Position numbers and translations under genes: made by a program
Shown: positions 7,805 to 60,712 of the stretch, one piece after another
How positions within the stretch are numbered: position 1 is the stretch's first letter
How the letters are laid out: each line of letters opens with the position of its first letter
Notes under the pieces: model-generated
What the model saw: only the letters and a program-made list of their open reading frames with translations
The model's database searches: none
Told to the model about the DNA's origin: nothing
DNA from: a virus
Strand: one strand, 5' to 3'
IMG/VR virus record: IMGVR_UViG_3300044946_000428
Location: 4,777-68,776 of that record
DNA: 64,000 nucleotides

Positions 7805-9217
7805 TCAGCCACGCTCTCCGACGTAGCCGGGTCCGACGCAGTACTGGTCGCCGTCCTCGGCGATCCAGCCCTGACTGACCGCAAGGTTGATCGCGTCCTC
7901 GAGGAGTCCGCGGTCCCGATGCGCGATCGCCATCCGGATCCCGTTGTACGTCAGGCCGCCGACACCGGCGTCCGCCACCTTGCGCGCCACGTTGCCCGCA
8001 ACCCGCATCTCGTTCGCCTCGGCACTGCGCTTGGCCTTGTGCTCCTGTACGGCAAGCTGGATCTTCTCCTTGGCCTGCTCATCCTTGGAGGCCTGCGCCT
8101 CGCGCTTGGCACGTGCAACGAGGGAATCGCGCACGAGGCACGAGGACTGCCAGGTCATCTCGGCAAGCTTCCAGTCCATGTCGTCGACCGCAAACCGGCC
8201 TTCAAGCAGCGCGAGCAGCGCCGCCATCTTCGCCATCATGAACCGGCGGTGCGCATCCAAAGGCTCGAGCACCAGGTCACCGTTGCCCAGCATGACGCGC
8301 TCACGCTTGATCAGATCCCGGACCTCCGGAGGGAACTCGACGTCGATGAAGTCCTTCGTGTTCTCGATCAGCGGGTGCAGCTTCAACTGCCCCGGATGGC
8401 GCGGCGCGTCGAACGGGATCGTGGGGTCCTCGGCCCAGGACCAGAAGAACCGCTGCGGCGTGCCGCCCCCGCCGTCGGCGAGCAGCTGCGTGACGGTGGT
8501 CGGCTGGTAGCCGACGACGAGGCCGAGGTTGTAGGTCTCCGGTGCGATGTACCGGTTGCGTTCTTCGGTGGCGTTGGTCTGCCCGAGTCCCTCGCCCATG
8601 GCGGCACTGCGCAGCGCCGTCATCAACGTCGAACCCTGGCGCCCGGCGAGCTGGGTGAGCTGCTCGCCCTCGTCGCAGTAGAAGAACACGTTGTTGCGGA
8701 CCTGCTTGCGCACCTTCGTCATGACCGGCTCGCCGCGCCGGGGACCGTTCTCGTAGACCTGGCAGGTCTCCTCGTCCACGGTCCCCATGAAGACCTCGGC
8801 CATACCCTCGCCGGATCCCAATGGGATGCCGTCGCGGAACTCCGGGTCACTGGCCGGGATCAGCCCGCGCGCCCCGGCCGCGCCGGAGGACTTGCCGGCG
8901 CCGGGATTGCCGACCAGGGCGACGTACAGGTTCATCGACCCTCGGCCGAAGATCCCGGTACGCATCTTGATCCGCCAGTTCAGCAGCCCGGACAGCCGCG
9001 CCATGGTCGTGTAGAACACGACGTCGCCCGAGCGGGCGTCGGCGTGCGCGGCATCCCGGATGTGCCTGAGGGTGTCGCGGGTCGCCCAGAACTCCTCAGG
9101 CAGCAGGCCCGGCCGGTCCTCGGCCTTCGGTGTGCCGTCGATGGGCTCGCTGCTGCGGGGGTCCTGTTCGGACCACGCGTCCTGATCCTCGGGCAGCCCG
9201 TCGTTGGTGATGGTCAC
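7805..9217 (-). CDS. P-loop NTPase, DUF3987/YfjI-like replicative helicase partner of prim-pol
   Basis: Walker A GNPGAGKS; Walker B-like FFYCDEGE; C-terminal wHTH-like region; GTG start overlapping the prim-pol TGA. Confidence 0.75.
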   Translation of the reverse strand: MTITNDGLPEDQDAWSEQDPRSSEPIDGTPKAEDRPGLLPEEFWATRDTLRHIRDAAHADARSGDVVFYTTMARLSGLLNWRIKMRTGIFGRGSMNLYVALVGNPGAGKSSGAAGARGLIPASDPEFRDGIPLGSGEGMAEVFMGTVDEETCQVYENGPRRGEPVMTKVRKQVRNNVFFYCDEGEQLTQLAGRQGSTLMTALRSAAMGEGLGQTNATEERNRYIAPETYNLGLVVGYQPTTVTQLLADGGGGTPQRFFWSWAEDPTIPFDAPRHPGQLKLHPLIENTKDFIDVEFPPEVRDLIKRERVMLGNGDLVLEPLDAHRRFMMAKMAALLALLEGRFAVDDMDWKLAEMTWQSSCLVRDSLVARAKREAQASKDEQAKEKIQLAVQEHKAKRSAEANEMRVAGNVARKVADAGVGGLTYNGIRMAIAHRDRGLLEDAINLAVSQGWIAEDGDQYCVGPGYVGERG

Positions 9218-10188
9218 CGCGATCCTCCGGCCTTGGCGAGGGCGCTGCGCCACGCCGCGTGGAACTCCTGGTCATAGCCGCGCTGGCTGACCGAATTGCG
9301 CGGTCGGCTCGCGCCCGCGTCGAACATCGCGTCGCGGGCGTCGATCTCGCTCACCAGGCCCTCCGCAACCAGGTGGGCAGCTGCGGTCGTCAGCCGGCAC
9401 AGGGCGTCGTGGCCGGTGTGCTCCGGCGCGCCCGCGAGCTCGTCCGCGAACTTGTCGAGCTGCTGATAACCCCAGTCCCGGCCTCGATCGGGCCGCGGCT
9501 CGCGGGGCTTGTGCGGCCGAGGCGGCTCCGGGAAGTGGCCCGTGACCTTCAGGTGGTGCAGTAGCCACTCGGGCGCCGGGCCCGGGTCCATTACGTCGGT
9601 GACGCGCCGGTAGCAGCCGCCCTTGACCGGAGTGCCCGGCGCGGGGATGTAGCCGTTGGACCCGCGGATGTCGACGAGCCAGCCGAACGAGCCGTCGGAA
9701 CTGTTCTTGATCCAGGTTCCGGCGGGGACGCGCCACGTGAGGTGCGCGCCGTCGCTCTTGGTGGACACGTGGAGGCAGTCGGCGGGCCACGGCGCGCTGT
9801 AGCGCTCGAGGATGAGCGCGAAGACGTCGGCGCCCTCGTTGACGCCGTCGATGTCCTTGTAGGCCTCGGGCTTGGGGCGTCGTTCCTTGTTGACGTCGAT
9901 GTCGACCGTGACCAGGTTCGACATGCCGTTGACGATGCCGAGGTTTGCGTCCGGGCGCCGGTCGAGCAGCCCGAGCACGTGGCCGAGGTTTGTGGACCCG
10001 GCCTGCCATCCGTGGCAGAACGCGGGTGGGTGCGGGCAGTCCTTGATGGCGTGCTGGCCGGGCGGGCACTGGCCGCAGTTGGCGAACGGCTTGCGCCGGT
10101 CGTCGATGAGGATCAGCCCGAATCCGAGGCCGATGAACGCCTCGGCGGCGCGGCGCTTACGAGGCACGTCAGTCAGCGTGGTGCTCAC
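9214..10188 (-). CDS. Bifunctional DNA primase/polymerase (Prim-Pol)
   Basis: ANLGI...LVTVDIDV, STKSDGAHL, VDIRGSNGYIPAPGT motifs; N-terminal C..C..H zinc site. Confidence 0.9.
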   Translation of the reverse strand: MSTTLTDVPRKRRAAEAFIGLGFGLILIDDRRKPFANCGQCPPGQHAIKDCPHPPAFCHGWQAGSTNLGHVLGLLDRRPDANLGIVNGMSNLVTVDIDVNKERRPKPEAYKDIDGVNEGADVFALILERYSAPWPADCLHVSTKSDGAHLTWRVPAGTWIKNSSDGSFGWLVDIRGSNGYIPAPGTPVKGGCYRRVTDVMDPGPAPEWLLHHLKVTGHFPEPPRPHKPREPRPDRGRDWGYQQLDKFADELAGAPEHTGHDALCRLTTAAAHLVAEGLVSEIDARDAMFDAGASRPRNSVSQRGYDQEFHAAWRSALAKAGGSR

Positions 10189-10358
10189 GGCATCCTCCTT
10201 GGTCCGCGCGAGAGGTGGGCTAGCTCACCTGGGTGATGGAACTGACGCTGTTCGGGGTACTGCACCAGTGCTGTTCGGCGATACCGTGTTGGTCTAGCAG
10301 GAGCGCGCGACGTTCTTGCAGGTGCAACGGCAGAACTACCTAGAGGAGTCTCAGATCC

Positions 10359-11114
10359 GTGACCGACGACACGCCGCTCTACCAGCAGATCGCCAACGAC
10401 CTTCGAAGAGGCGTCGGCGAGGGGAGATTCGATGCCAATGAAGGCAGGCTCCCCGGCGAGAAGGCTCTGGCCGAGCAATGGAACACGTCCACGGCAACCT
10501 CGAGCAAGGCTTTGAAGCTGCTCGAGCGTGAGGGTGTGATCGAGATCCGCAGGGGCGTCGGTGCTTTCACCCGACGCCGCAAGCCGATCATCCGCGATGC
10601 GAACGGCCGACTGTCCCGCGAGCAGTGGGGCGCGGGTAAGGCGATCTGGCAGTTCGACCTCGGCGACCACTACCCGGTGCCCGAGACTGCGGTCTACCGG
10701 GACGGCGAGGAGAAGGCGCCCAAGGTGCCGGACTTCGTACGAGCCACGCTTCAAGCCGATCGGTACCTGATCCGCGACCGCAGGTACACGGTCGAGGGCT
10801 GGCCGATCCAGGTTGCGACCTCGTTCTTCGATGCGGCAATTGCCGAGGGGACCGAGATCGCAAATCGCGACTCGGGTCCGGGTGGCGTGTACGCACGGCT
10901 CGCCGAGCTCGGGCATGAGCCGGTGGCTTTCCTTGAGCAGGTACGCAGCCGACTTCCGCTCGACGATGAGGCGAAGCGTCTGCGGATCACAACGGACAAG
11001 CCCGTTTCGGAGATCGTTCGCCAGGCGAAGACGGCTGCTGGCCGGGTCGTCGAGGTCAACGTCATGCTGTTGCTGGGCGACGCTTACGTGCTCCAATACG
11101 CCTTCTCCTCCTAA
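10359..11114 (+). CDS. GntR-family regulator with a UTRA domain (KorSA/TraR-like)
   Basis: PLYQQIANDLR....LPGEKALAEQW.TS..T...AL..L..EG.I..RRG.G; C-terminal UTRA-like domain. Confidence 0.92.
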   Translation: MTDDTPLYQQIANDLRRGVGEGRFDANEGRLPGEKALAEQWNTSTATSSKALKLLEREGVIEIRRGVGAFTRRRKPIIRDANGRLSREQWGAGKAIWQFDLGDHYPVPETAVYRDGEEKAPKVPDFVRATLQADRYLIRDRRYTVEGWPIQVATSFFDAAIAEGTEIANRDSGPGGVYARLAELGHEPVAFLEQVRSRLPLDDEAKRLRITTDKPVSEIVRQAKTAAGRVVEVNVMLLLGDAYVLQYAFSS

Positions 11115-11233: not shown

Positions 11234-11485
11234 ATGACGACAGCGACCGACACCGCGGCGCCGGCACAGACCGACGAGTTCCTCACCGTCGGCGAGGTCG
11301 CCAAGCTGCTCCGGACCACCCCGATGACCATCTACACCGAGATCCACGAAGGGCGACTCGACGCGATCCGCGTCGGGCGCCGGACCTACCGGATCCCCGT
11401 GGAGTCCTACAACGCGTACAAGGAGGCGCAGCGCACCACGCCCCGCGCCGAGACCGGCCAGCTCGTCCCGGCCACCGCCGCGTAA
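11234..11485 (+). CDS. xis: Excisionase/MerR-like HTH DNA-binding protein
   Basis: EFLTVGEVAKLLR..PMTIY..I.EG.L.AIRVGRRTYRIP (HTH_17 excisionase consensus). Confidence 0.85.
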   Translation: MTTATDTAAPAQTDEFLTVGEVAKLLRTTPMTIYTEIHEGRLDAIRVGRRTYRIPVESYNAYKEAQRTTPRAETGQLVPATAA

Positions 11486-17043: not shown

Positions 17044-17964
17044 ATGCCCGGCCGGGAGAACACGCCCACCACACCGGAACTCGACGTTCCGGCCGGCGCC
17101 GTGCGCGAACTCAGCACAGGCGCCACCCTCGCCGTCCTCTTCGCCGAAGCCATGTCATCCGTGCGGCTGTTCGGACTCGGCGAGCGCGTCGGGTTCGCCT
17201 GGTACCTCGCCTGGCTCCTGCCGGGCGCGCTCGACGTCTACGCCCTGACGATGCTCCGCTTCTCCTCCCGCATCCCAGACGGCCACCGCCTGCGCCACAA
17301 GGCCATGCGCGAGGCGATTCTCGCGCTCGCCATCACCGTCGGGTGCAACGCCCTCTACGAGGCCGTCACCGCGTTCGCCCGTCAACTGCCCGTCTGGGCA
17401 CCGGGCGCGCTCTTCGTCCTCGTCTCCGCGCTCGCCCCGTTCGTCGCCGGACGGATCATCCACTTCCACGCGGGCATCGGACGCTCCACCCCCGCGAGCG
17501 CCAGGACGCCCGAGACCGCGAGCGGTAGCGACGAGCGCCAGGGCGCTGCCGAAGAGCGCGAGCACCGCGAGCCGGAAGCGCTCGTGGCCGAGAAGCGGCC
17601 GAGCGCTCCCGCCGCCCCGCAAGCGCTCGTGGTCGAGCGCAAGCCGATCGCGAGCACGGTGCGCGAGCGCGCCCTGCGCACCCCGGCCGCGAGCGTTACC
17701 GAGATCGGCGCCGCGGGCGGCCTGAGCCGCGAGCAGTGGGGCGAGCGTGGCGCCCCCGTCTACCGCGAACTCATGGACCGCGACGGCACCGGCCCCTCCG
17801 CCCCCAAGCTCCTCGACGCCCTCGTCACCCGGGGGCTGGCCCAGTCCGTCTCCCCGGCCCGCGCCCGCGTCATCCGCAAGGCGGCGGAAGACCACCTCGG
17901 CCTCACCGGCGACCCCGACGACGGCTCGGCAGGAGACGAACCCGACGCGGACGCCGTGGCCTGA
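17044..17964 (+). CDS. DUF2637/SpdB-like conjugal-spread membrane protein
   Basis: Four N-terminal TM segments (AWLLPGALDVYAL...NALY...SALAP) plus low-complexity linker and C-terminal helical domain. Confidence 0.7.
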   Translation: MPGRENTPTTPELDVPAGAVRELSTGATLAVLFAEAMSSVRLFGLGERVGFAWYLAWLLPGALDVYALTMLRFSSRIPDGHRLRHKAMREAILALAITVGCNALYEAVTAFARQLPVWAPGALFVLVSALAPFVAGRIIHFHAGIGRSTPASARTPETASGSDERQGAAEEREHREPEALVAEKRPSAPAAPQALVVERKPIASTVRERALRTPAASVTEIGAAGGLSREQWGERGAPVYRELMDRDGTGPSAPKLLDALVTRGLAQSVSPARARVIRKAAEDHLGLTGDPDDGSAGDEPDADAVA

Positions 17965-18088: not shown

Positions 18089-18664
18089 GTGACCCTCACC
18101 GCCACCGCATCCCCGCCGCTGCACGACGCGGCCCTGACCGCCACCCAGGCCCACGTGTCGCTGCTCGGCGCCACGGCCCTGTGCCTGATCTTCGCGTTCT
18201 TCCTGCGCCGCCGCGCCGCCGGCATCACCTCCTCGATCGAGCGCCGCGGCCTCGTGCGCCGCTCCAACGGCGCCGTCAAGACCGTGCGCCACAGCCGCAC
18301 TGTCCTGGAGTGGGCCGCGTTCCTGCTGTTCGCCGCCGCCGGGGTGTGCGCCTCCGGCACGTTCGTCGGTTCCCTCGTGCTCTGGTTCGCCCGCCAGGTC
18401 CAGCACCTGTTCGACCTGCTGCCGGTCAAGGGGCAGCTCGGCGTCAACGCCGGCCTGCTGATCGTCGGGCTGTTCTTCCTGCACAAGGGCCTGCACCTGC
18501 TCGGCGACGTCCTCGAGGGCAAGGCGCACCAGGGCGGCGCGGACTGGCTCGCGTTCCTCGGCCCGATGGTCTTCACCCTCGTGCCCGGCTATTTCGGCGA
18601 GGGCGCCGCCTGGGTGTACTCGGGCATGGCCACGCACATCGTCCCGCTCGTCGAGCACCTGTGA
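18089..18664 (+). CDS. Multi-pass membrane protein, Spd-like
   Basis: 4-5 hydrophobic helices; lies in the TraB operon. Confidence 0.75.
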   Translation: MTLTATASPPLHDAALTATQAHVSLLGATALCLIFAFFLRRRAAGITSSIERRGLVRRSNGAVKTVRHSRTVLEWAAFLLFAAAGVCASGTFVGSLVLWFARQVQHLFDLLPVKGQLGVNAGLLIVGLFFLHKGLHLLGDVLEGKAHQGGADWLAFLGPMVFTLVPGYFGEGAAWVYSGMATHIVPLVEHL

Positions 18665-18674: not shown

Positions 18675-19874
18675 ATGACCGACCTCTTCGATGCGATCTT
18701 CGCGTACTACCTGATGATGCTCGGCGCGGGAGCGGTCGCCGGGGTGCGCTCGTCGCTGCGCTCGGCGACGCCCGCAGGCGCCCCTGCGCTCGCCGGCGCG
18801 AGCGACGGCGCCCCCGACCCCGCGAGCGGCGCGCCCGGCGCGGGGCGCTCGCCCGCGCCTGCCGCGAGCGCTACCCGTGCGGCGCTCGGCGCCCGCTTGT
18901 ACGCGGCGGGACAGCGAGCGGCGCGAGCGGCCGTAAGCGCGGGCCGGCATCCGCGGACGGCGTCGATCGCCGGGTGGGCGAGCGGCGCCCGCTTCTACCG
19001 GGGCTCGCGCCGCGGCATGCGCGTCGTGACGGCCCGCGTGATCGCGCGCCGCGTCCTGGCGCCGCAGGCGCCTGCCGCGCCCATGCAGCCGCAGCCTGCG
19101 GGGTCCGACCCCGCCGCGCCCGGTTCCGCCGCGCCCGTTCCGCCGGCCGGGGCGCCCGGCCCCGGCCCGACGCCGCCCCAGGCTCCCGGACCCACCCCGA
19201 ACGCGCCGCCCCCGCCGGGCCCCCCGAGCGGGGACGACCTGCTCTACATCTGGCAGGGCGTCTTCGAAAATCCCGACCCGGCGCCCGCCGCACCCGCAAG
19301 GCCCGTCCTGTTTCTCGTCCCGCAGCTGAAGGAGTACCCGAGCATGAGCGAAATCCACGACTACGAATCCGCGCAGTCATTCACCGGGGAGGCGTCCGCG
19401 ACCGCCGCCATGGAAGCCGAAGACGCCGTATCCGCCGCGGAATCCACCGCCGCCGCCGCGGAATTCTCCAGCCAGACCGCCGCGCGGGTCGACGTGGAAA
19501 TCCAGACCATCGAGGCCGGCATCGCCACGATGACGGTTCTCGGCGTCGATGAGAACAGCCTCGCCGCGTATCACCAGTTCCTCGAGGGCGGCCTCGCCTA
19601 CCGGGAGTTGGCCGCCACGTTCGCGGCCGGACTCGCCGACCTCACGGGCCTGGCCGCGGCCATGTCCGCCGCAGCCGTCGCCTACCACGAGCTCGGCGCC
19701 AACGCCCTGGAGACGATCACGGCGGAGCAGGGCCTGCACGACGAGGCCGCGAAGGCCACCGGCCACGGCGGCGCCGACGGCTCGTTCTTCGGCGTCGCGT
19801 CCACCACCGGCATCGCCGCGCCCGCGCCCGCCCCGGCACTCGCCGCCGCGGCCCCCGCGCCGCCCGCGAACTGA
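18675..19874 (+). CDS. Plasmid/AICE transfer-associated protein (TraA/Spd-like); internal start at 19344
   Basis: Pro/Ala linker then AAGGAG-N8-ATG; helical C-terminal domain ending ..EQGLHDEAAK..G.ADGSFF; directly upstream of traB. Confidence 0.6.
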   Translation: MTDLFDAIFAYYLMMLGAGAVAGVRSSLRSATPAGAPALAGASDGAPDPASGAPGAGRSPAPAASATRAALGARLYAAGQRAARAAVSAGRHPRTASIAGWASGARFYRGSRRGMRVVTARVIARRVLAPQAPAAPMQPQPAGSDPAAPGSAAPVPPAGAPGPGPTPPQAPGPTPNAPPPPGPPSGDDLLYIWQGVFENPDPAPAAPARPVLFLVPQLKEYPSMSEIHDYESAQSFTGEASATAAMEAEDAVSAAESTAAAAEFSSQTAARVDVEIQTIEAGIATMTVLGVDENSLAAYHQFLEGGLAYRELAATFAAGLADLTGLAAAMSAAAVAYHELGANALETITAEQGLHDEAAKATGHGGADGSFFGVASTTGIAAPAPAPALAAAAPAPPAN

Positions 19875-40904: not shown

Positions 40905-40928
40905 GCATGCCCGAAAGCAGGTACGCAC

Positions 40929-46342: not shown

Positions 46343-46360
46343 CCCACCCGATCTACCTGC

Positions 46361-46390: not shown

Positions 46391-46448
46391 CGCCTGCGCT
46401 GCACGGCGAGCACCTGTTGATGCCTAAGCGCAGAAAGGCGGCGGCGCC

Positions 46449-47675: not shown

Positions 47676-47746
47676 CCGGCCCCACCTCCCACGCCGCGCC
47701 CGCGCATACCCGCGCCGGGCGCTTCACTGTTTCTAAGGACACGCAC

Positions 47747-48509: not shown

Positions 48510-48533
48510 CGTGCACGGGGCGGAGGTGGCCTC

Positions 48534-51500
48534 GTGGCGGACTCGGTCACCGTCCTGCTGATGCTCGAGGCGATCGACAAGGCCTCGCAGATCATCGAGC
48601 GGATCTCGGGGAAGCTCGACGCGCTCGGCGAGAAGGCGCAGGCCGCAGCCGACAAGGCCGGCATGACCGGCGAGGAGCTTGAGGCCGCGCAGGTCAAGGC
48701 CGAGGCTGCCGCGAACGCGTATGCCGCCGCGGTGGACGAGCAGGACGCGGCGCAGGCCCGGCTGCTCGAGTCCACGCAGGCCGTCAGGGACGCGCAGAGT
48801 GCGGCGGCCGAGTCTGCGGCCCGGCTCGCGGAGGCGGATGCGGCCGTGGCCTCCGGAGTGGAGGAGGCGGCGACCGCCGCGCAGGCCTCGTATGCGGACA
48901 TCGCGGCTGCCGCCGACGCGTCGTCGGCGGCAGTGAAGGCCGCGATCGCCGAGCAGGTCGTCGCGCTCGATGCGCTCGGTGTCGCGCAGAAGGAAGCGGC
49001 GGCGCGGGCGGATGAGTCGGCGGCGGCGCAGGACGCGGCGTCCACCTCGACGGACCTGTCTGGGATGGCTCTCAAGGGCCTGGCTATCGGGGCCGCGGCG
49101 ACGGCGGCGGCTGTGGCGGGCATCGGCTACGAGTCCGTCAAGGCTGCGGCGAACTTCCAGTCAGCCACCACGGTGCTGGTGACGTCCGGGGGCGAGACTG
49201 CGCAGAACATCGAGATGGTGCGTCAGGGGATTCTGGGCCTGGCCTCATCCACGGGTACCGCGACGCAGCAGTTGATCAACGGCATGTACCTGATCGGCAG
49301 CGCGGGCTACACGGGCGCACAGGGCCTGAACGTCCTCAGGGCCGCGGCGCAGGGCGCGAAAGCGGAGAACGCGGACCTCGGCACCGTGTCCAACGCGCTG
49401 ACCACCGTCATGCACGACTACGGACACGGTGCCTCGAGCGCGACGGCCGACATGGATGAACTGATCACCACGGTCCAGAACGGCAAGACCACCACGGAGG
49501 CGCTCGCGTCGTCGCTTTCCACGGTGCTGCCGATCGCCGCCAAGGCCGGGCTGAATTACGCGCAGGTCGGCGGCGCGCTGGCGACGATGACCGCCGAGGG
49601 CATGAGCGCGCAGAACGCGTCGCGCGACCTGGCGAACACGATCACCAATCTGCAGGGCCCGAGCCAGATCGCATCCAAGGAGATGGCCCAGATGGGCCTG
49701 AACTCCAACGACCTGTCTAAGAACCTCGGCAAGGTCGGGCTCGCCGGGACGATCGAAGAGGTCACGAACGCGATCCAGCAGCACATGGGCCCGGCCGGCC
49801 TGGTCGTGGTCAGCGCGTTCCAGAACTCGGCCGCCGCGACGCAGAACCTTCAGACGATCATGTCGAAGATGCCGGCGGACCTGAAGTCCCTGGCGACCGA
49901 GATCGTGAACGGCACGATCAGCACCAAGGATCTGCGGACCGCGACCTACGGACTCAACACCGAGCAGGCGAAGCAGATCAGCCAGCTCGAGACTGTGGTC
50001 GGGCAGACCCACGAGTTCAACAGCGCCCTGACGTCCGGGACCCCGGCGCAGATCACGGCCGCGAAGGCCCTGCAGACGATGCTCGGGGGCCAGGTCGGGC
50101 TGAACTCGGCCCTGATGATCTCCTCCGACAAGTACAGGACGGTGACCGGCGACACGAACGCGATTGCCGCGGCCGGTAAGACGGCGGGGGCGAACGTCGA
50201 GGGCTGGGCCGAGATCCAGGGCAACATGAATCAGAAACTTGACGAGCTCAGGCAGACGGTGGAGGCCGCCTGCATCCAGCTCGGTACGGCGCTGCTGCCG
50301 ATGGTCACGAAGATCCTCGACGTCGTCATGAAGATCGTGGCGCCGATCGCGGACTGGATCGAGCACAACAAGACGTTGGCCGCCGGGATCCTGCTGGTCG
50401 TCGGCGGCCTGGCGATCCTGGTGACGACGATGGTCATAGTCGCCAAGATCATAAAGACGGTGCGCGATGCGTGGAGCATACTCGGCAGCGCACTCGACCT
50501 GGTTACGGGCAAGACCGCCAGGGCCGCTGCCGCAGCCAAGGCCGCCGCCGCGGAATCGGAGGCGGCCGGGGAAGGGGTCGCCGCGGAAGCCGCCGCGGCC
50601 GACGCCGCCAGCGGGAGCATGGAGGCGCTCGCGGAGACCACCGAGGCCGCCGCGACGGCAGCGGACGACAGTGCGGTCGCGGCCGACGCGTCGGCGCTGG
50701 CGTGGGTCCGCTCGGGGCTCGCCGCCGCGGCTTCGGCGGTGAAATTCGTTGTGATGCAGGCCGCGCAGCTTGCCGCGGCAGCGGCTTCGAAGGCCGTCGC
50801 GGCCGCGCAGTGGCTGGTGAACGCGGCGATGAAAGCGGACCCGATCACCCTGATCATCATCGCGATCGTGGCGCTGGTCGCGGCGTTCGTCCTGCTGTGG
50901 AACGAGTCGGCGGGGTTCCGCGACTTCTGGATCGGCGCCTGGTCGGACATCGAGGGCGCGGCCGAGGCAGTCTGGCGTTTCCTCGAGACCGTCTGGGCCG
51001 CCATTGTCGCAGGGTTCGAACTCGTTGTCGACGGCGCCGAGAGCGCGGTCTCGTGGTTCGAATCGCTCCCCGGCAAGTTCGCCGCGTGGATGGCCGGCGT
51101 CCTGAGTGCGGTGGCCGGCGACGGCGCGAAAATCCTCTCGTGGTTCACGTCCCTGCCGGGGGAGATCCTCTCGGCGCTCGGCAGCCTCGGAGGGCTGCTC
51201 GTCAGGGCGGGCCAAGATGTGATCTCCGGACTGCTCAACGGGATCAAGAACATCGCGGCGTCGGTAACATCGTTCTTCGCCGGCATCCCGGGCTACATCG
51301 AGGGGTTCTTCGCGGGCGCGGGGACGTGGCTGTTCGACATCGGCAAAAGCATCCTCGAGGGCCTGGTCAACGGGGCGAAGTCCGCGTGGAGCGATGTGAC
51401 GGGGTTCTTCGGCGGCATCGGATCGGCGATCATCAATATGAAGGGGCCGCCGGAGTACGACAGGGTGATGCTGGTCGGCAACGGGCAGTTGATCATGCAG

Positions 51501-51794
51501 GGCCTTATGGCCGGGTTCGACTCCCAGGTCCCCGCGCTGCACGCGAAACTCGGATCGATCACCACAAGCATCAAAACGGACATGACCGGGCCGCAGAACC
51601 TCAGCCAATCGTTCGCCGCGGGGCTCGGCGGGGCCGCTTCGCCGGGCGCCGGCGGCGGCACGCTCGTGCAGCAGACGTTCACCGGGAACTACCTGATGTC
51701 CGACTCGGACATGACCAAGTTCGCGAACTTCGTCGGGAACAAAGTCGTCACGCAGCTCGCGCCGCAGGGCGGCGTCAAGACGTTGCTGAGGTGA
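48534..51794 (+). CDS. Tape measure protein (TP901-like domain)
   Basis: 1086 aa, Ala-rich coiled coil, AANFQS..T, W-spaced repeats, hydrophobic segments. Confidence 0.93.
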   Translation: MADSVTVLLMLEAIDKASQIIERISGKLDALGEKAQAAADKAGMTGEELEAAQVKAEAAANAYAAAVDEQDAAQARLLESTQAVRDAQSAAAESAARLAEADAAVASGVEEAATAAQASYADIAAAADASSAAVKAAIAEQVVALDALGVAQKEAAARADESAAAQDAASTSTDLSGMALKGLAIGAAATAAAVAGIGYESVKAAANFQSATTVLVTSGGETAQNIEMVRQGILGLASSTGTATQQLINGMYLIGSAGYTGAQGLNVLRAAAQGAKAENADLGTVSNALTTVMHDYGHGASSATADMDELITTVQNGKTTTEALASSLSTVLPIAAKAGLNYAQVGGALATMTAEGMSAQNASRDLANTITNLQGPSQIASKEMAQMGLNSNDLSKNLGKVGLAGTIEEVTNAIQQHMGPAGLVVVSAFQNSAAATQNLQTIMSKMPADLKSLATEIVNGTISTKDLRTATYGLNTEQAKQISQLETVVGQTHEFNSALTSGTPAQITAAKALQTMLGGQVGLNSALMISSDKYRTVTGDTNAIAAAGKTAGANVEGWAEIQGNMNQKLDELRQTVEAACIQLGTALLPMVTKILDVVMKIVAPIADWIEHNKTLAAGILLVVGGLAILVTTMVIVAKIIKTVRDAWSILGSALDLVTGKTARAAAAAKAAAAESEAAGEGVAAEAAAADAASGSMEALAETTEAAATAADDSAVAADASALAWVRSGLAAAASAVKFVVMQAAQLAAAAASKAVAAAQWLVNAAMKADPITLIIIAIVALVAAFVLLWNESAGFRDFWIGAWSDIEGAAEAVWRFLETVWAAIVAGFELVVDGAESAVSWFESLPGKFAAWMAGVLSAVAGDGAKILSWFTSLPGEILSALGSLGGLLVRAGQDVISGLLNGIKNIAASVTSFFAGIPGYIEGFFAGAGTWLFDIGKSILEGLVNGAKSAWSDVTGFFGGIGSAIINMKGPPEYDRVMLVGNGQLIMQGLMAGFDSQVPALHAKLGSITTSIKTDMTGPQNLSQSFAAGLGGAASPGAGGGTLVQQTFTGNYLMSDSDMTKFANFVGNKVVTQLAPQGGVKTLLR

Positions 51795-51798
51795 CATC

Positions 51799-53187
51799 GT
51801 GGTCGCCGCCCCGCACCTGACCCTGACCGTGACGCCGCCGGGCGGCTCGCCCACCGACTACACCACGCACCTCGCGTGGGCGGGCGCCCAGCAGCAGATG
51901 ACGGTCACGCAGAATTTCGGGCGTCAGGGCGACACGGCGACGCTCGCGATCATCGAGGACTACGCCGCAGCAGGCACCCCGACCATCGCGATCCACGGCA
52001 TGTCGCAGGTCTCGCTCTACGACAACACCGCCGCGGCGAGTCTGTTCGCGGGGGTCGCGAACTCCGTGACCCAATCCGTGATCGTCAACAAGGCGCTCAA
52101 CGAGTGGGACCTCGGCGCCGTCGACTACACCCTGTACGCCGACAACAAAGACGTCCACGGAATCTTCTACGGCTGGACCGTCGATCAGATCGTCGTCAGC
52201 CTGGTCCAGCAGGCGAACTGCGGGATCACCGCCGCGACGGTCGCGAACGGCGGGTACGTCGAGCCCGGCCCCCAGCTGGCCAGCTACGTGCTCAATTTCA
52301 ACCCGCTGTCCACGGCGTGGCGGCAGCTTGCGAACCTCGCCGGCTCCACCACCCCGTGGGGCTGGTATGTGGACCAGAACCTCGAATTGCATTTCTTCCC
52401 CGGCACCGAGGCGCTCTCCTCCGGGGTCACGTTCACCACCTCCGCGACCGCGTCCGGTTCCCTGACCGAGGGCCACATCCTCCTCGACAGCCAGAACGCC
52501 TACCAGCAGGACGGCACCAGCCTCTCGAACGTGATCCTCGTGCAGGGCGCGAACCAGACCATCTCCTACGGGTCCACGACCAGCACCCCGACGGATACGT
52601 GGCTCGCCGACGGCACGGCCTCGGCGTGGCCGCTGCGCTACACCGTCTCCGGCACGCCCGTCCTGCACATCGGCGGCGTCGTCACGGCCGTCGTGGTGGC
52701 GACGTCCGGGACGACCGCGTCCGGGCCCTGGGTCGTCGAACAGAACTCGATCGGCCAGTATTTCCTGGTCGCCGCGACCGCCCCGGCCGCGGGCACCGAG
52801 ATCCAGATCTGGTACACCTACCTCGTGCCGGTGGTCGCGCAGGCCTCCGACCAGGCGTCGATCAGCGAGTACACGGGGCCGAACGGCGGGGTCTACTCCC
52901 AGTTCGTCTCGGACTCGTCGCTCACGACCGTGCCGATGGCGCTCGCCAGGGCGATGCAGATGCGCTCCGAGTACGCGTTCGTCGTCGAACGCTTCACGTT
53001 CAACACGTCCCCCGACTTCATCGGGTGGGTGCGCGCGGGCTGGACGTGCGTCGTGGTCGACATGTTCGCCTACGACATCCAGAACAGTGTTTTCGGACTC
53101 ACGGACACGTTCGTGATCGTTGCGAACACGGTCACGTTCGGCGACGGCGGCTACCGGTCGATGCAGGTCACGGCCGTGCGTATCTAA
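51799..53187 (+). CDS. Distal tail/hub protein
   Basis: Beta-rich 462-aa ORF immediately after the tape measure gene. Confidence 0.7.
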   Translation: MVAAPHLTLTVTPPGGSPTDYTTHLAWAGAQQQMTVTQNFGRQGDTATLAIIEDYAAAGTPTIAIHGMSQVSLYDNTAAASLFAGVANSVTQSVIVNKALNEWDLGAVDYTLYADNKDVHGIFYGWTVDQIVVSLVQQANCGITAATVANGGYVEPGPQLASYVLNFNPLSTAWRQLANLAGSTTPWGWYVDQNLELHFFPGTEALSSGVTFTTSATASGSLTEGHILLDSQNAYQQDGTSLSNVILVQGANQTISYGSTTSTPTDTWLADGTASAWPLRYTVSGTPVLHIGGVVTAVVVATSGTTASGPWVVEQNSIGQYFLVAATAPAAGTEIQIWYTYLVPVVAQASDQASISEYTGPNGGVYSQFVSDSSLTTVPMALARAMQMRSEYAFVVERFTFNTSPDFIGWVRAGWTCVVVDMFAYDIQNSVFGLTDTFVIVANTVTFGDGGYRSMQVTAVRI

Positions 53188-53196
53188 GGGGGCCGC

Positions 53197-53412
53197 ATGC
53201 CGTCGGGTGTATACCGGCCGATGACGTGGGCGGACCTGCTCAACTCGATCAACGGGCAGAACTCCGCGAGCGTCGACACCGCCACCTCGGGCCTCGGGTA
53301 CGTCGCCGAGGCCGACGAGCAGACCGCGTGGGCGGACGCGGCCACGGGGATCGTCTTCACCGGCTACCCCGGCTGGGACCAGGAGGTGTGGGGTGCCACC
53401 GCTTGGCAGTGA
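53197..53412 (+). CDS. Small tail/baseplate protein (71 aa)
   Basis: Clean ORF in the tail operon. Confidence 0.6.
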   Translation: MPSGVYRPMTWADLLNSINGQNSASVDTATSGLGYVAEADEQTAWADAATGIVFTGYPGWDQEVWGATAWQ

Positions 53413-53413
53413 A

Positions 53414-54052
53414 ATGCGGGGCGCCGCCGCCGCCCACGCGTCCGAGTCTCTCGCGCTGCGTGGACGCCTTGCCGCGACCGTCGTGCGCGGCAGCGACCGC
53501 CTTGCCGCAGCGGACCTCGCCGAGTACCTCGAGTTGACGATGCGCCAAGGACTCACGGGCGCCGACGCGCTGGCCCGGATCACCGGCGAACCGGACACGG
53601 CCGGCGAGCACCGCGAGGGCGGCAACGTCATGTGCACCACCGGATACAGCGCCCTCGCCGCCGCGCTCGTGTGGTCCGGGCTCCAGGACCAGGCCTCGAG
53701 CCTGGGGTTGGCCTCGGCGACCTTTCTCACGCCCCTGTACGGCGCGGTCGGCTCGGGCACCGGGACTCCGGCGAAGAGCGATACGGCGCTGTTCGCGGAG
53801 CTCGGCCGGCAGACGGTCGGAGCGGGCGCATCGAACCCGGCGTCGTCGAGCATCGCCGCGTACTGCACGTGGCTGTTCTATTTCACCTCTCCCGCGACAG
53901 CCTGGACGGTGGCGGAGGCGGGACTGTTCGCGAGTGCATCCTCCACGACCAACAGCGGCACGATGATCGACCACTGGTCGTTCTCGCCGACCTTGTCCGT
54001 TCCGACGAACGACTCGCTGCTGTTGCAAATCAGCCTGCTCCTCGGACCGTAG
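53414..54052 (+). CDS. Minor tail protein
   Basis: AVGSGT.TPA.SDTAL.AELGR...W...EAGLF pattern of baseplate/fibre-anchor proteins. Confidence 0.7.
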   Translation: MRGAAAAHASESLALRGRLAATVVRGSDRLAAADLAEYLELTMRQGLTGADALARITGEPDTAGEHREGGNVMCTTGYSALAAALVWSGLQDQASSLGLASATFLTPLYGAVGSGTGTPAKSDTALFAELGRQTVGAGASNPASSSIAAYCTWLFYFTSPATAWTVAEAGLFASASSTTNSGTMIDHWSFSPTLSVPTNDSLLLQISLLLGP

Positions 54053-54061
54053 GGAGGCGGC

Positions 54062-54790
54062 GTGGCAACTCCCGCATGGCTGGGGGCGACCTCCGGGCAG
54101 CGCCCGCAGGCCTCCCAGGTCAACCAGTTCCTCGGCGCCCACGCGGTCTCGTACCTCTACACGGGCGCGCTCATCGGCAGTCAGACGACGCTGGGCTCCG
54201 GTTCGGCGACGACCGCGACGACGTACGTCGCGCAGAGTTTCACGACCCCGGCGAGCACCGTGGCGCTCGGGCGGATCGTGCTGGACCTGACCTCCACGGG
54301 CAGTCCGCCCCCGGTCTCGATCTCGATCCAGGCGGCGGTCGGCGCGGCGCCGTCGGGCACGCCGCTGGTGACGACCTCGGTGCCCGCGGACTACGTGGGC
54401 GGGATCGTCTCGATCCCGGTGCCGTACGCCAGTCTCGCGGCGAGCACGCAGTACTGGATCGTCGCGGCGATCGGGACGTCGGGCAGCTACTTCTCCTGGC
54501 TCAAGAGCAATCAGACGTCGGGAGCCAGCGCTTCGACGAACGGCACGTCGTGGACGGCGCAGACGTACGGGCTCTACTACGCGTACTACGACCAGACGGT
54601 GACCGCGCCGCTGACCCACACGTGGGAGGACGCGGGCGCGCGCTGGACCGCACCGACGTACAACGCGAACGGAACGCCGGCGAGCCTGCGGGAGTACACG
54701 GTGGCTCAGGGCACCGGTGGATACGTGTATTCGCTGCGTTCTTTCGCCTATGGCGGCGCCGGCTCCGGCTACCTCATCTCGATCACGTAG
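54062..54790 (+). CDS. Minor tail protein, paralog of the N- and C-flanks of the next gene
   Basis: QV.QFLG.HA...Y.G and HTWED.GAR.T shared with 54794-57079. Confidence 0.75.
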   Translation: MATPAWLGATSGQRPQASQVNQFLGAHAVSYLYTGALIGSQTTLGSGSATTATTYVAQSFTTPASTVALGRIVLDLTSTGSPPPVSISIQAAVGAAPSGTPLVTTSVPADYVGGIVSIPVPYASLAASTQYWIVAAIGTSGSYFSWLKSNQTSGASASTNGTSWTAQTYGLYYAYYDQTVTAPLTHTWEDAGARWTAPTYNANGTPASLREYTVAQGTGGYVYSLRSFAYGGAGSGYLISIT

Positions 54791-54793
54791 GGG

Positions 54794-57079
54794 GTGGCGG
54801 TGGCGACTCCCGTTTACAGCGCGGCGCAGGCCGGCATCGTCGGCAACGCCGGTGCCATCGCGGCGTCCGCGCAGGTCGACCAGTTCCTCGGGACGCACGC
54901 CGACACGATCGTGTACCAGGGCGCTTCGATCCTGACGCCGAACGGCACGGGCGGCACCGCGTGGAACTATCAACTTTCCACGCAGGACATCGACCAGCCG
55001 TTCGCAATGTCCGGCACGGCGATCGGGCGCGTCGCGATTCCGCTGCTGCCAGTGGGGAATGGTGCCGACCTGCTCGTCAGCCTGTGCGCGGACAACTCCG
55101 GCACGCCCGGCACGATGCTCAGCCAAACCCGCGTTCCGGCATCGTGGATCACGCAACTTGCTGCCGTCTCCGGCAGCTCCGGGCCGTCCAACGGCAGCCC
55201 TTCCGTGCAGTACACGGGCAACCCGCTGGCCGCAGCACAGTTCAACTCGTTCCACATGTCGGCCCCGGCCACCAAGTCATGGCCGTACCCAACGAGCGGT
55301 ACCGGCGGCCCGTCCACATTCCCCTCCTCCACCTATGTCGGCGACGAGTTCGTCCAGGTCGGCGGGAGTGTCGGCTCCACCCTGTACAACAACGTGTACA
55401 CGATCCCGTATAACGCGAACGGGACCCTCGCGCCGGCGGTTGTCCAGCCCGCGTTCCCCTCCGTCACCGACGGGTCGGCGACCGGCGCCGCCTATACAGA
55501 CTCCAGTGGAAACCAGACCCTGTTCGTCGTCGGCGGCTGCGAGACGCCCAACGTGCCCGTATCCGCCGTCTACGCCGCCAGCATGGACGCCTCGACCGGC
55601 AACATCAACTCGTGGTCGCAGCAGACCTCCCTGCCGTACGCCACGAACCTCGCTGGCGCTGTCGCCAGCAACGGATATCTCTACGTCCTCGGCGGCCCGT
55701 TCAGCACGACGCCGACGACCAACGTCTACTACGCGGCGATATCCAACGGCCAGATCGGGTCATGGACCGCGACGACGCCGCTCCCGCTGGCGCTTTCTGC
55801 ATTCTTCACCGTCGTGTCGAACGGATTCCTGTTCATCATCGGCGGAGTGACCCCCAGCACCATCGGGCTGTCCACCGTCTACTATGCCCCGCTGCTGGCC
55901 AACGGCGCGATCGGGGCGTGGCGCGCGGGGCCGCCGCTGTCGGTGACGCTGTATCAGGCGAGCGGACTGCCGGTGATCACGGCGGGCGGCTATGGGATCA
56001 TCGTCAACGGCAGCGCGACACTGTCCATGCTCGGGGTGGGGCCGGGCGGCCCCGATTCCGCATGGCAGACCGCGAACCTGTTCCTGGGCGGCGACTTCAT
56101 CGCCGCCGCCGGCTCCAGCGCCGGGCTGTGGCAGTACTACGGCCTGTACCAGTCGTCGTACACGACGATGCCGATCAGCCTTACGCCTCGGATCTCAGTC
56201 CCGCTGCCCGCCACGGGCCTGACCAGCGGCGGGACCTACCACATCCTTATGCAGCAGCAGGGCGGGGATCCGAACGACTATCTGCGCACGCACCTCGACG
56301 TGGACGTCTTCACCGGAAATCCGACGCTGCAGACGTCACCGAGGGGCACGTACACGTGGACGGCCGCTGCCGCAGGCAATGCCGTGCCGATCCAGATCTA
56401 CGACCAGACCGCGTTCGGCCTGCCGCTGCATACGTGGGAAGACTCGGGCGCCCGCGTCACCACGATCGTGCGCTCCACGACCCCGGACCAGCGGGTGCTC
56501 GGCCTGTGCGAGGCGACCCGCATGGGGCTCGGCCTCAACCAGAACCAGGGCTTCGAGTCCGGGCTGACCCCGTGGACGGTTTCGGGCGGCACGCTCTCGC
56601 AGTCCACCGCCCAGTCCTACGCCGGGATCCACTCCGCGCAGATCACCCCGTCCGGGTCCAGCGCGCAGGTCGGGCTGAGCTCCGAGACCCTCGCCTGCCT
56701 GCCCGGGCAGTCGGTCACCGTGGCCGCGCGGTTGTGGTTCACCTCCGCCGTCACGACGAACGCGTCGATATCCGTCAACTGGTTCACATCCGGCGGGGCG
56801 TACATCACGACCTCGTACAACGAAGTCTCCGTGGCGGCCACGACATGGACGCAGATCGCGAACACGTTCACCGCCCCGGCCACCGCCTACGGCTTCACGA
56901 TCAACCCGACGCTCGGCGGCACCCCCGCCGCAACACAGATCTGGTACGTCGACAACATCATCGCGACCTACACGTACACCGGGGCGCAGCAGTCCTCGGT
57001 CACCGAGTTCTCCTACGCCAGCGTCTGGCCGGCGACCGGCGCGGCACCCGTCCTGACGTCCACGACAGTCCTGGCCTGA
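54794..57079 (+). CDS. Receptor-binding-like tail protein with Kelch-type repeats and a C-terminal CBM-like domain
   Basis: Repeated LYVLGG/LFIIGG...VYYA...G.IG.W...LP; NQGFESGLTPW...G.HSAQIT (CBM_4_9-like). Confidence 0.78.
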   Translation: MAVATPVYSAAQAGIVGNAGAIAASAQVDQFLGTHADTIVYQGASILTPNGTGGTAWNYQLSTQDIDQPFAMSGTAIGRVAIPLLPVGNGADLLVSLCADNSGTPGTMLSQTRVPASWITQLAAVSGSSGPSNGSPSVQYTGNPLAAAQFNSFHMSAPATKSWPYPTSGTGGPSTFPSSTYVGDEFVQVGGSVGSTLYNNVYTIPYNANGTLAPAVVQPAFPSVTDGSATGAAYTDSSGNQTLFVVGGCETPNVPVSAVYAASMDASTGNINSWSQQTSLPYATNLAGAVASNGYLYVLGGPFSTTPTTNVYYAAISNGQIGSWTATTPLPLALSAFFTVVSNGFLFIIGGVTPSTIGLSTVYYAPLLANGAIGAWRAGPPLSVTLYQASGLPVITAGGYGIIVNGSATLSMLGVGPGGPDSAWQTANLFLGGDFIAAAGSSAGLWQYYGLYQSSYTTMPISLTPRISVPLPATGLTSGGTYHILMQQQGGDPNDYLRTHLDVDVFTGNPTLQTSPRGTYTWTAAAAGNAVPIQIYDQTAFGLPLHTWEDSGARVTTIVRSTTPDQRVLGLCEATRMGLGLNQNQGFESGLTPWTVSGGTLSQSTAQSYAGIHSAQITPSGSSAQVGLSSETLACLPGQSVTVAARLWFTSAVTTNASISVNWFTSGGAYITTSYNEVSVAATTWTQIANTFTAPATAYGFTINPTLGGTPAATQIWYVDNIIATYTYTGAQQSSVTEFSYASVWPATGAAPVLTSTTVLA

Positions 57080-58901: not shown

Positions 58902-59711
58902 ATGCCTGACCGGCTTCGTGCCCGCTGGTTCCCGTCTGCACTCATGCTGTGCGCGCTGCTCGGGCTCGGACTGCTCGCGTACCTGCTGCTGATGCTGCAT
59001 ACCGCCTCGACTCAGATCAGTGGGCTCAGCTCGGCGCGCGCGACGCAGGACGCGCAGATCAACGGTCTCGCCGCCGCAGTGGACTCGGCCAGGGCGCAGA
59101 TCCGAGGCCTGGGCGGGACGCCGGTCGTGCCCGCGCCGAGCCAGATCCTGGAGACGATCCAGGTTCCCGGGCCGCCGGGACCCGCGGGCGTCGGAGCTAC
59201 CGGGCCTGCGGGCGCTCCTGGTTCGCCGGGTAGTCCGGGCGCGTCCGGCGTGAGCATTACGGGTCCGGCCGGCGCGCCGGGAAGCGTTGGCCCGAGCGGG
59301 CCGGCCGGCGTCCAAGGCGCACCCGGCGTACCTGGCAGTCCAGGCGCCCCAGGCGCTCCGGGAAGTCCGGGCGCCGTCGGGCCCAGCGGACAAGCCGGCG
59401 CGCCCGGCAGCCCGCCCGCAGGCTGGTCCTGGACCGACCCGTCCGGCAACACCTACACGTGCACCGAGAACGGGGCGAGCCCGGCGCCGCAGTACACGTG
59501 CGCGCTCCAGACCCCGACCCCGCCGCCCGCGACCGGGACGGACACCGTCAGCCCCGCCGCCGCACCGCTGCGCGACACGGGCGGCGCCATCGCGGCCGAC
59601 GCGCCCGACCCGACCACGCCCCTGCGCATCCCGAGTCCGCACCCGCGGCTGCTGCTCGTCCTGCTGGTCCCGCTGCTGCGGCGCGACGACCTCTACCTCC
59701 TGGAGACCTGA
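58902..59711 (+). CDS. Membrane-anchored collagen-like protein (lysis cassette)
   Basis: N-terminal TM, coiled coil, about 25 G-X-Y triplets, hydrophobic C-terminus. Confidence 0.8.
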
Positions 59712-60712
59712 TGTCCGTCAAGGGCTGCGACTACGCGTTCGATCGACCGGCCGTCCCGGCCCTGACCGCCGACGGCATCGAGTTCGCCTGCCGGTACCTG
59801 TCCACCGACCCCGCCAAGAACCTCACCACCGCCGAGCGCGACGCCCTGCACGCCGCCGGGATCAGCATCGTCCTCGTGTGGGAGACCACCGGCCGCTCCC
59901 CGATCGGCGGCTACGCGTCCGGCCTCGCCGAGGCTCGTACCGCCCGGGCGCAGGCGATCGCACTCGGCGCACCCGCGAGCCTGCCGATCTACTACGCCGT
60001 CGACTTCGACCCGACCACCGCCGAGATCACCGAAGTCCTCGACTACCTCCACGGCGCGTCCGACGCCGAAGGCTCCAAGGACAAGGTCGGCGTCTACGGG
60101 TCATACGAAGTTGCCGAGGCGGCTGCGGCAGCCGGATACGCGTACCTGTGGCAGACCTACGCCTGGTCCGACGGACAGTGGGAGCCCGCCGCCGTCATCC
60201 GCCAGACCCTCAACGGCACAACCATCGGCGGAGTCGACGCCGACATCGACGAAGCGACCGCCGGAAACTACGGACAGTGGACGCCCGCCGGGACGCCCGC
60301 GACGACCACGGCACCGGCCGTACACCCGGGCCGCCCGCAGGTCGTCGAAGGCAACTCCGGGTACTGGGTCGAGGTGCTCCAGCGGTCCCTGATGCTCGCC
60401 GGCGTCGACCCCAAGGGTGTGGACGCCCACTTCGGCGCGAACACGCTCGCCGCGGTCAAGGATGCGCAGAAGGCGTTCGGGATCCACGTGGACGGGCAGT
60501 GCGGCTCTGTGACGTGGCAGCACCTCGAGGCCCGCACTCTCGTCGTGCAGCACGCCCTCGTCGGCCAAGGGCTCGGTGCGGGCGGGACGGACAGCGTCGC
60601 CGGACCCAACACCGCACAGGAAGTCCTCGCGTTCCAGCGGCAGCACAAGCTGAAGCAGGACTCGATCGTCGGCAAGCGCACGTCCAAGGCGCTGGGGATC
60701 CCGGCCGCCTGA
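59711..60712 (+). CDS. Endolysin: DUF1906/GH25-like glycoside hydrolase plus peptidoglycan-binding domains
   Basis: RYLS....KNLT..E...L..AG...V.VWE...PIYYAVDFD...GVYGS; DG.FG..T..AVK..Q PG-binding repeats. Confidence 0.9.
   Translation: MSVKGCDYAFDRPAVPALTADGIEFACRYLSTDPAKNLTTAERDALHAAGISIVLVWETTGRSPIGGYASGLAEARTARAQAIALGAPASLPIYYAVDFDPTTAEITEVLDYLHGASDAEGSKDKVGVYGSYEVAEAAAAAGYAYLWQTYAWSDGQWEPAAVIRQTLNGTTIGGVDADIDEATAGNYGQWTPAGTPATTTAPAVHPGRPQVVEGNSGYWVEVLQRSLMLAGVDPKGVDAHFGANTLAAVKDAQKAFGIHVDGQCGSVTWQHLEARTLVVQHALVGQGLGAGGTDSVAGPNTAQEVLAFQRQHKLKQDSIVGKRTSKALGIPAA

Follow-up and report, generated by a model that had tools for sequence, protein, structure and literature searches.

The window analyzed here, 64,000 nucleotides covering bases 4777-68776 of the 111,156-bp IMG/VR record IMGVR_UViG_3300044946_000428 (G000, from a soil metagenome), encodes a Tra/TraB-type FtsK-like translocase for double-stranded DNA (dsDNA) amid the genes of a temperate tailed phage. 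The translocase, or pump, belongs to a transfer module whose gene order recurs in other viral genomes, and which, judging by gene content and order, is an old, conserved, integral, and co-transcribed-looking part of an integrating element that encodes virions. We advance, at somewhat less than even confidence, the reading that a 110-133 kb Streptomyces phage lineage, together with distant actinophages of 56-133 kb, keeps a working conjugation system of the TraB/clt type, by which the prophage or excised circle would pass between hyphae and between strains without virions, pump and DNA site co-evolving lineage by lineage. The explanation that we favor, with evenly balanced confidence, takes the window as the middle portion of a temperate, siphovirus-like element from a Streptomyces-type host, and the module as one that would move the element's dsDNA. 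Because G+C runs at 66-75% along the window, genes were called by third-position G+C; the called genes were scanned against Pfam, NCBIfam, and PHROGs. Two relatives, G001 (132,777 bp) and G002 (127,094 bp), proved collinear with the record throughout in a gene-by-gene BLAST comparison. Coordinates are those of the window unless another record is named.

The translocase and its gene neighborhood

The translocase gene (19909..21957, plus strand) specifies 682 amino acids (aa) comprising i) a membrane anchor of two transmembrane (TM) helices, visible as hydrophobic 19-residue segments at residues 75-93 and 122-140 and as long N-terminal helices in an AlphaFold model; ii) a motor domain whose Walker A (GASGTGKS) and Walker B (LLSVTLEE) motifs, like its sensor and arginine positions, do not vary among 20 family members at 30-84% identity, making decay unlikely; and iii) a C-terminal winged helix-turn-helix (wHTH) at residues 600-665 (predicted local distance difference test score, pLDDT, 85-90), which aligns with the C-terminus of pIJ101 Tra and with the FtsK gamma region. 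In a Foldseek search of PDB with the model (core pLDDT 85-97), FtsK motors on dsDNA ranked first (E 1e-15), ahead of the conjugation coupling protein TcpA, EccC, and HerA, and the top match in a fold search of Swiss-Prot is pIJ101 Tra, over residues 72-667 (E 7e-21). A sequence search of PDB with the ATPase returned only a weak HerA match; a profile built from the 20 family members and compared with pIJ101 Tra by hhalign gave a probability of 96.8% (E 2.4e-10) over 413 columns that take in both Walker motifs (A and B), the TQxPS motif, and the wHTH. We conclude that the ATPase is a remote homolog of the pIJ101 Tra/TraB family, and not a member of it by curated models; the original prediction of a full FtsK/SpoIIIE TraB holds for the TM helices, both Walker motifs, and the wHTH, but not for family membership.

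By tblastn the ATPase has homologs, at 33-40% identity, on 94 plasmids of actinomycetes, of which 84 come from Streptomyces. Homologs on Streptomyces chromosomes (36-42% identity) lie near Xis-like and integrase genes in the manner of AICEs (integrative and conjugative elements of actinomycetes); the att sites of these chromosomal copies (L038) were not found within the flanks retrieved. Among isolated phages tblastn detected no relative of the ATPase, and a megablast search of isolated phages was also empty. A scan of IMG/VR with the single ATPase sequence gave no match; the family alignment found relatives. At least 7 more viral records, 56-133 kb in size, combine a TraB-like gene with one for the large terminase (TerL), a co-occurrence that had been proposed at the outset as a thing to search for; one of these records, G007 (132.7 kb), carries a capsid gene and assembles as a circle with 127-bp terminal repeats.

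Upstream of the pump gene, on the same strand, lie genes for a 306-aa membrane protein (17044..17964), a 191-aa membrane protein with 3-4 TM helices (18089..18664), and a protein in which a Pro-rich linker joins an N-terminal TM helix to a helical C-terminal domain (18675..19874, start at 18675 or 19017). The last two are conserved partners of the translocase, the 191-aa protein being 68% identical in G001 and 43-44% in G002 and L006, and its neighbor 47-52% identical in G001, G002, and L006. The 306-aa protein, earlier described as a DUF2637 protein, has no Pfam DUF2637 match and no BLASTP similarity to a DUF2637 relative or to pIJ101 SpdB; the description survives by position, the proteins found at the same place in relatives carrying PF10935 (DUF2637). 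Downstream, and always downstream of the translocase, come a 136-aa protein with a hydrophobic N-terminus and a YdjM-family membrane hydrolase (together 22168..23228, plus strand; YdjM at 22578-23228, PF04307, E 2.9e-21, 86% identical in G001), in the same order in L003, L006, L067, and L068. The module order as a whole (membrane protein, 191-aa membrane protein, ~400-aa protein, pump, small gene, ~137-aa protein, YdjM) is found in 7 relatives: G001, G002, L006, L067, L068, L069, and L070.

The first gene past the supposed junction with the phage genes (23413..24231, plus strand) encodes a phage DNA-binding protein (phrog_1467/1568) that is 84% identical in G001 and 75% identical in G002, and is separated from YdjM by one small gene (DUF6221) in G001 and by about 1.5 kb in G002. 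G001 and G002, with proteins 47-86% identical, preserve the gene order including this 23.3-kb junction, and junction and order are kept also in L006, L067, and L068, bearing out the original prediction of a plasmid-type transfer module within a virion-encoding element. As first noted, there is no integrase or att-like repeat at 23.2-23.4 kb: we found no integrase, tRNA, or direct repeat of at least 20 bp at or around this position, and no direct repeats of at least 20 bp bracketing 7.8-23.3 kb. An independent Logan assembly, of a run that may be the source sample, covers 14,500-34,000 with one 40,049-bp contig at even depth and without differences. G001 TerL has no BLASTP match to the window TerL, yet a Terminase_6C protein stands at the expected place; portal and capsid are 23-25% identical, the portal at 25%, and the tail genes are 50-86% identical, unlike the exchanged head and packaging genes (32018-42419 in the window). 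With the head module exchanged and the transfer module still in place, the transfer module has stayed put through mosaic evolution.

Other candidate boundaries were rejected. A 16-nt match (16208, 21908), considered as a flanking repeat, encodes GRDAG in two genes, with part of it belonging to a conserved family motif, and is taken as chance. An ARAGORN call of tRNA-Gly at 11983-12055, considered as an att site that would split the block, is not recognized as a tRNA by Rfam, and its only repeat is a twin 423 bp upstream; we read it as a tRNA-like leader, not as attB or attL. The two tRNA-like elements of ~84 nt (11549-11632 and 11972-12055) share 94% identity over 54 nt; both have a GGTTCGAATCC-type T-loop and both are followed closely by a strong ribosome-binding site and start codon, the second being tRNA-Gly(TCC) according to ARAGORN.

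A repeat array upstream of the pump gene

Proteins of the Streptomyces Tra/TraB family bind repeated 8-bp motifs (TRS) in a clt locus on their own replicon. The window has a candidate clt/TRS-like docking site in the form of a repeat array (17492..17745, plus strand), which falls within the 3′ half of the gene for the 306-aa membrane protein and precedes the pump gene by about 2-3 kb. The array contains at least 8 direct and 2 inverted copies of the 9-bp CCGCGAGCG (at most 1 mismatch) in all three reading frames, and is the densest cluster of this type in the 111-kb record (10 per 300 bp, vs 6 for the next best). When direct 7-mer clusters were ranked over the entire 10-22 kb locus in 6 relatives, first place went in all 6 to this half of the same gene, so that all 7 phage-type loci have their top direct-repeat cluster in the 3′ half of the DUF2637-position gene, with copies in several frames. 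The motif varies with the lineage, which a clt-like site would be expected to do; over the 7 loci the motifs are CGCGAGC, CGACACG (10 copies or more in its array), CCGGACA, GACACCC (in two loci), CCGGAAC, and CGCTCCG. Arrays at an equivalent distance upstream of the pump gene are found as well in copies of the module on plasmids and chromosomes and in the distant G007.

Taken together, a conserved position, lineage-specific motifs, and copies in several frames point to a protein-binding site at the DNA level that co-evolves with its binder. The wHTH of the pump would be the obvious candidate for that binder, and its recognition helix differs between the 111-kb record and the GACAC-type relatives. 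A clt placed as in pSVH1, at or downstream of the 3′ end of the pump gene, was considered and rejected: the 8-mer clusters there, CGAACTCG (4 copies) and CCGTCGCG (5 copies), are weak and no better than elsewhere.

The element around the module

An intact attP (60802..61023, plus strand) lies between the lysin gene and the gene for a 470-aa tyrosine integrase (61077..62489, plus strand, PF00589), the only Phage_integrase match in the 111-kb record. The attP core (60921-60946) equals the last 26 nt of a tRNA-Cys(GCA) gene apart from that gene's final 2 nt, matches 100% at one site, inside tRNA-Cys, in each of 4 Streptomyces genomes, and has GTGAGCAC arm-type repeats and a terminator on its flanks. 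Since phage genes stand on both sides of the tRNA half, the attP is intact and the element was sequenced in free form: it was caught unintegrated, and the label 'provirus' that IMG/VR gives to the 111,156-bp record is wrong or imprecise. No match to ParA/ParB (ParB_N, AAA_31) was found in G000, G001, G002, G007, or G009, which together with the sole tyrosine integrase argues for an integrative lifestyle, unlike that of the plasmid-like pZL12 discussed below. The predicted excisionase (Xis) gene is present as well, in the form of a small HTH_17 DNA-binding protein of the MerR/excisionase type (11234..11485, plus strand, PF12728, E 7e-10), a candidate Xis or recombination directionality factor also kept in G001.

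The first gene of the plus-strand train encodes the GntR/UTRA (HutC-type) regulator noted at the outset (10359..11114), which is KorA/KorSA-like (27% identity to pIJ101 KorA, E 3e-10) and is kept in G001 (48%) and G002. About 20 small genes separate the Xis-like gene from the membrane-protein genes. One of the small genes upstream of the module encodes an anti-sigma-factor-type Ser kinase (RsbA/HATPase_c_2-like, 13845-14252); a STAS-domain protein occupies its place in a relative (L006:1611-2432), and the two may represent a partner-switching pair.

On the minus strand beside the GntR gene are genes for a 324-aa Prim-Pol primase/polymerase (9214..10188, PF09250, E 6.5e-21) and a 482-aa helicase-like protein (7805..9253), the latter just below the DUF3987 cut-off (26.1 bits vs 27) and matching phrog_11515 (E 2.6e-43) as the C-terminal part of a 'DNA polymerase/primase' (phage primase/polymerase-helicases). 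Both genes are thus where they had been predicted, but the co-directional run into the late genes begins with the GntR gene, prim-pol and helicase lying on the opposite strand. Nor are they a hallmark of AICEs: by their PHROG matches they are equally typical of phages, and they are unlinked to the module in relatives. G002 has a 60% identical homolog of the helicase-like protein adjoining its GntR gene and its prim-pol elsewhere, in the early arm, and G001 has DnaB beside GntR; the replication genes beside GntR are therefore not fixed among these relatives, and 'AICE-type replication' does not form one unit with the pump. The helicase/prim-pol operon adjoins an intergenic region (7436..7804) in which an AT-rich stretch, TTTTCTATATATTTAG, is flanked by clustered GTACATG/CATGTACGC repeats, and which holds 4 copies of GCGTACATG within 30 bp vs 6 in the whole 111-kb record; from these features the region looks like a candidate replication origin.

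The expected terminase, head, tail, and lysis genes are all on the plus strand. They encode a large terminase (32018..33733, Terminase_6C, E 8.8e-20, 58-61% identity in G002); a portal fused to a NUDIX domain (33830..37096; Phage_portal, E 3.8e-12; NUDIX, E 8e-19); an XkdF-type prohead protease fusion (Peptidase_S78_2) and a 496-aa candidate major capsid protein, assigned by position only (together 38571..42419); a tail module (45602..57079) of HK97 gp10-like protein, tail tube, 1086-aa tape measure, distal tail proteins, and Kelch/CBM fibre; and an endolysin that joins an Rv2525c-like glycoside hydrolase to PG_binding_1 (59459..60712, start at 59459 or 59711). Further small genes after that for the DNA-binding protein, a beta-helix appendage-like protein before TerL, and a collagen-like protein before the lysin belong to the same train, which runs as one long series of plus-strand genes from 10359 to 62489. 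Large terminase, portal, prohead protease, tail tube, tape measure, lysin, and integrase/attP constitute the set of a tailed temperate phage, and no sheath gene was seen among the profile matches.

AICEs block redundant transfer with a NUDIX protein (Pif in pSAM2), and free-standing NUDIX genes are found beside the DUF2637 and YdjM genes in relatives (L006). An HNH endonuclease gene with two HNH_3 stretches (42975-43553) lies between the candidate capsid and the head-tail genes and is absent from that place in G001. In G007, TerL (G007:C1:32573-35452, L019) matches in two pieces within one 1766-aa frame, suggesting an intein or other insertion, and a protein with an ADP-ribosyltransferase domain (PF03496, E 5e-30) is encoded ~2.6 kb downstream of TerL, past one 758-aa gene.

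The interval 7805-60712 had been taken for a complete siphovirus with its early region at 7.8-23 kb, and neither statement survives comparison with relatives: the collinear record runs to 111,156 bp, with attP, integrase, and the main early region outside that interval. More small genes lie left of 7.8 kb, and right of attP and integrase (together 60.9-62.5 kb) two minus-strand genes are followed at 64-101 kb by a classical early region with YqaJ exonuclease and ERF recombinase, a C5 methylase, a DnaC-like loader and DnaB helicase, and a Ro60/TROVE protein. This last, a Ro60/TROVE plus vWA protein (103932-105602 of the record, or 99156-100826 on the window scale and so outside the window; L035:15932-17602), is 59% identical to one in the distant G007. 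G001 is circularly permuted relative to the record, each contig spanning the ends of the other, which fits a circular or terminally redundant genome of ~130 kb. The element therefore measures at least 111 kb, and its full size is probably about 130 kb; the ~20 kb absent from the record was probably lost at an assembly break caused by an insertion sequence (IS). A truncated IS605 OrfB/TnpB gene (Cas12f-like TNB) sits exactly at the contig end (1-1080 of the record; L033:1-1080), and probably caused the assembly to stop short of G001. In G001 the arm matching the absent part includes a Thg1-like tRNA-His guanylyltransferase gene (G001 96500-97300; L029:16500-17300).

Known systems, proposed transfer, and rival explanations

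Among the closest non-phage relatives is the Kitasatospora indigofera linear plasmid NZ_CP108210, which has a pump 36% identical over the motor domain and the order GntR, small genes, large upstream protein with a repeat array (CGCGAGG, 10 copies), ~400-aa protein, and pump; it differs in being a linear plasmid that encodes DnaB, DnaN, ParA, and a replication-relaxation protein, with no virion genes annotated in the 38 kb examined of 58.6 kb. pIJ101 (Tra, or KilA, and KorA) and pSVH1 (TraB) share with the window a membrane anchor, an FtsK-like motor, and a C-terminal wHTH; the window has, besides, its KorA-like GntR/HutC regulator nearby and, as a candidate recognition site, short direct repeats on the same DNA. 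Their Tra and TraB are, however, only about 16-22% identical to the phage pump, and the plasmids measure 9-13 kb, whereas the carrier here is virion-encoding and at least 111 kb; here, too, the regulator lies ~9 kb upstream on the pump's strand instead of being divergently paired with the pump gene, and the array lies inside an upstream membrane-protein gene.

A published precedent for the gene combination is pZL12/phiZL12, a Streptomyces plasmid-phage described in a paper whose title names transfer beside the plasmid and lytic phage cycles (Zhong et al. 2010, J Bacteriol 192:3747; cited in PMC4487206). In pZL12 (GQ919031) the GntR gene pZL12.80, membrane proteins, and the FtsK-like pZL12.71c adjoin the packaging genes of a tailed-phage genome, so that virion genes, an FtsK-like transfer gene, and a GntR regulator share one replicon as they do here. 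Unlike the present element, with its tyrosine integrase, tRNA-Cys attP, and lack of ParA/ParB matches, pZL12 is a 90-kb ParA/ParB plasmid, and the kinship is distant (TerL 31% identical, pump profile match at 72.7% probability). The combination of a pump beside packaging genes is thus already known from pZL12/phiZL12; here it occurs in an integrative ~130-kb lineage with a pIJ101-Tra-like pump and a positionally conserved array.

The AICE toolkit consists of Int, Xis, Rep (including Prim-Pol), a GntR regulator, and an FtsK-like Tra, and pSAM2, SLP1, and pMEA300 range from 10.9 to 17.3 kb (te Poele 2008, PMC2440964; Ghinet 2011, PMC3218068); a PF01580 domain in the Tra protein is among the criteria for an AICE (Ghinet 2011, PMC3218068). 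Like these elements, if more loosely, ours has a tyrosine integrase at a tRNA 3′ end, Xis, a GntR regulator, a single FtsK-like Tra, and, of the RepSA, RepAM, or Prim-Pol types of Rep, the Prim-Pol (PF09250). Unlike them, its Tra protein does not reach PF01580 and its toolkit is spread over at least 111 kb that also encode complete head, tail, and lysis functions, while AICEs are small and without virion genes. An element many times the size of an AICE that encodes virions is not an AICE.

How the module might work can be pictured by analogy with pIJ101 Tra and pSVH1 TraB. The module, made up of the KorA-like GntR regulator, the membrane protein with the array in its gene, two more membrane proteins, the translocase, and the YdjM hydrolase, lies between replication and packaging genes, on the strand of the late genes. 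After excision, or during episomal replication, the membrane-anchored translocase would assemble as a ring, dock through its wHTH on the array at 17492-17745 as on a clt-like site, and pump the circular dsDNA phage genome into adjacent hyphal compartments or a recipient hypha in contact. Spreading would be helped by the membrane partners, repression by the GntR protein would restrain a pump that is potentially lethal, and Int/Xis would provide for excision and for insertion at tRNA-Cys. On arrival, the genome would either insert at tRNA-Cys or begin a lytic cycle, giving the element two routes of spread, by virions and by mating-type transfer. What the analysis shows is the anatomy of the element, its homologies, their conservation, and its free state. 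On this analogy conjugative or intramycelial spread of the element is plausible; pump-array binding, transfer as such, and its timing we infer from the same source.

Several observations weigh against conjugation by this module. The best NCBIfam match of the ATPase is NF041214 plasmid_TraB (E 1e-8), with 34 bits against a cut-off of 800, and Pfam PF01580 FtsK_SpoIIIE gives no match at E 0.01. The partners first described as Spd-like are membrane proteins as claimed, but they match neither pIJ101 SpdB nor any Pfam/PHROG family. The clt of pSVH1 lies at the 3′ end of traB, whereas the candidate array lies upstream and inside a coding region, and the array could instead bind another protein or serve replication. 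A genome of ~130 kb is far above classical AICE size. Module G+C is 0.74 vs 0.68-0.70 elsewhere in the element, which suggests a plasmid or foreign origin, though an old acquisition. Finally, the module is co-directional with the late genes, so a function in the lytic cycle is possible.

That last point leads to the alternative that the pump serves only the phage's own infection cycle, driving replicating phage DNA across cross-walls into neighboring compartments of one mycelium before lysis, for a larger burst or to outrun local defence, with no transfer to other strains. Streptomyces-type hosts do grow as compartmentalised hyphae, the module is directly upstream of the late genes on their strand, and the membrane partners are conserved along with the pump; but the closest relatives of the pump reside on plasmids and chromosomal islands without virion genes in the flanks examined, and a KorA-like repressor with a Xis/Int set fits transfer based on lysogens, and we consider this alternative rather unlikely, although sequence analysis would look alike under it and under the favored explanation. 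It is improbable, too, that the module is not a system for transferring the phage genome but a device for host takeover, exclusion, or defence, blocking or expelling incoming plasmid, AICE, or phage DNA or acting as a kil-type growth inhibitor, as might be suggested by the kil function of pIJ101 Tra, by the filing of FtsK/SpoIIIE-like phage proteins in PHROGs under 'moron, auxiliary metabolic gene and host takeover', and by the HerA/FtsK-fold ATPases of defence systems among the fold matches. Against this, fold and profile searches alike match best to the transfer protein itself, over its full length including the sequence-reading wHTH, and the conserved, lineage-specific array carried by the element itself points to a function in cis.

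The elevated G+C of the module and the family models that its pump fails to reach would also be expected of an inactive relic of an old recombination with a plasmid, but with catalytic positions invariant across the family, all frames intact, and gene order kept across genomes with exchanged head modules, we regard decay as very improbable. Hardly credible, finally, is an independent AICE inserted into a prophage, or the joining of two elements by assembly error: a compositional step at 17-23 kb would fit either, but there is a single integrase, no edge tRNA or flanking repeat was found, the junction and order recur in G001, G002, L006, L067, and L068, and the second assembler crosses the junction in one contig at even depth.

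The pZL12 precedent tempers the value of the finding, and the lineage-specific arrays allow pump and site to be tested directly as a pair. Should the pump move the phage genome, neither receptors nor the survival of virions in soil would limit how far these phages spread and which hosts they reach; mating could carry lysogeny through a whole mycelium or community; phages could be the carriers of conjugation-driven chromosome mobilisation in Streptomyces; and the boundary between AICE, plasmid, and phage would be blurred in a way that current classifiers miss, as when IMG/VR assigns 'provirus' to an unintegrated genome.

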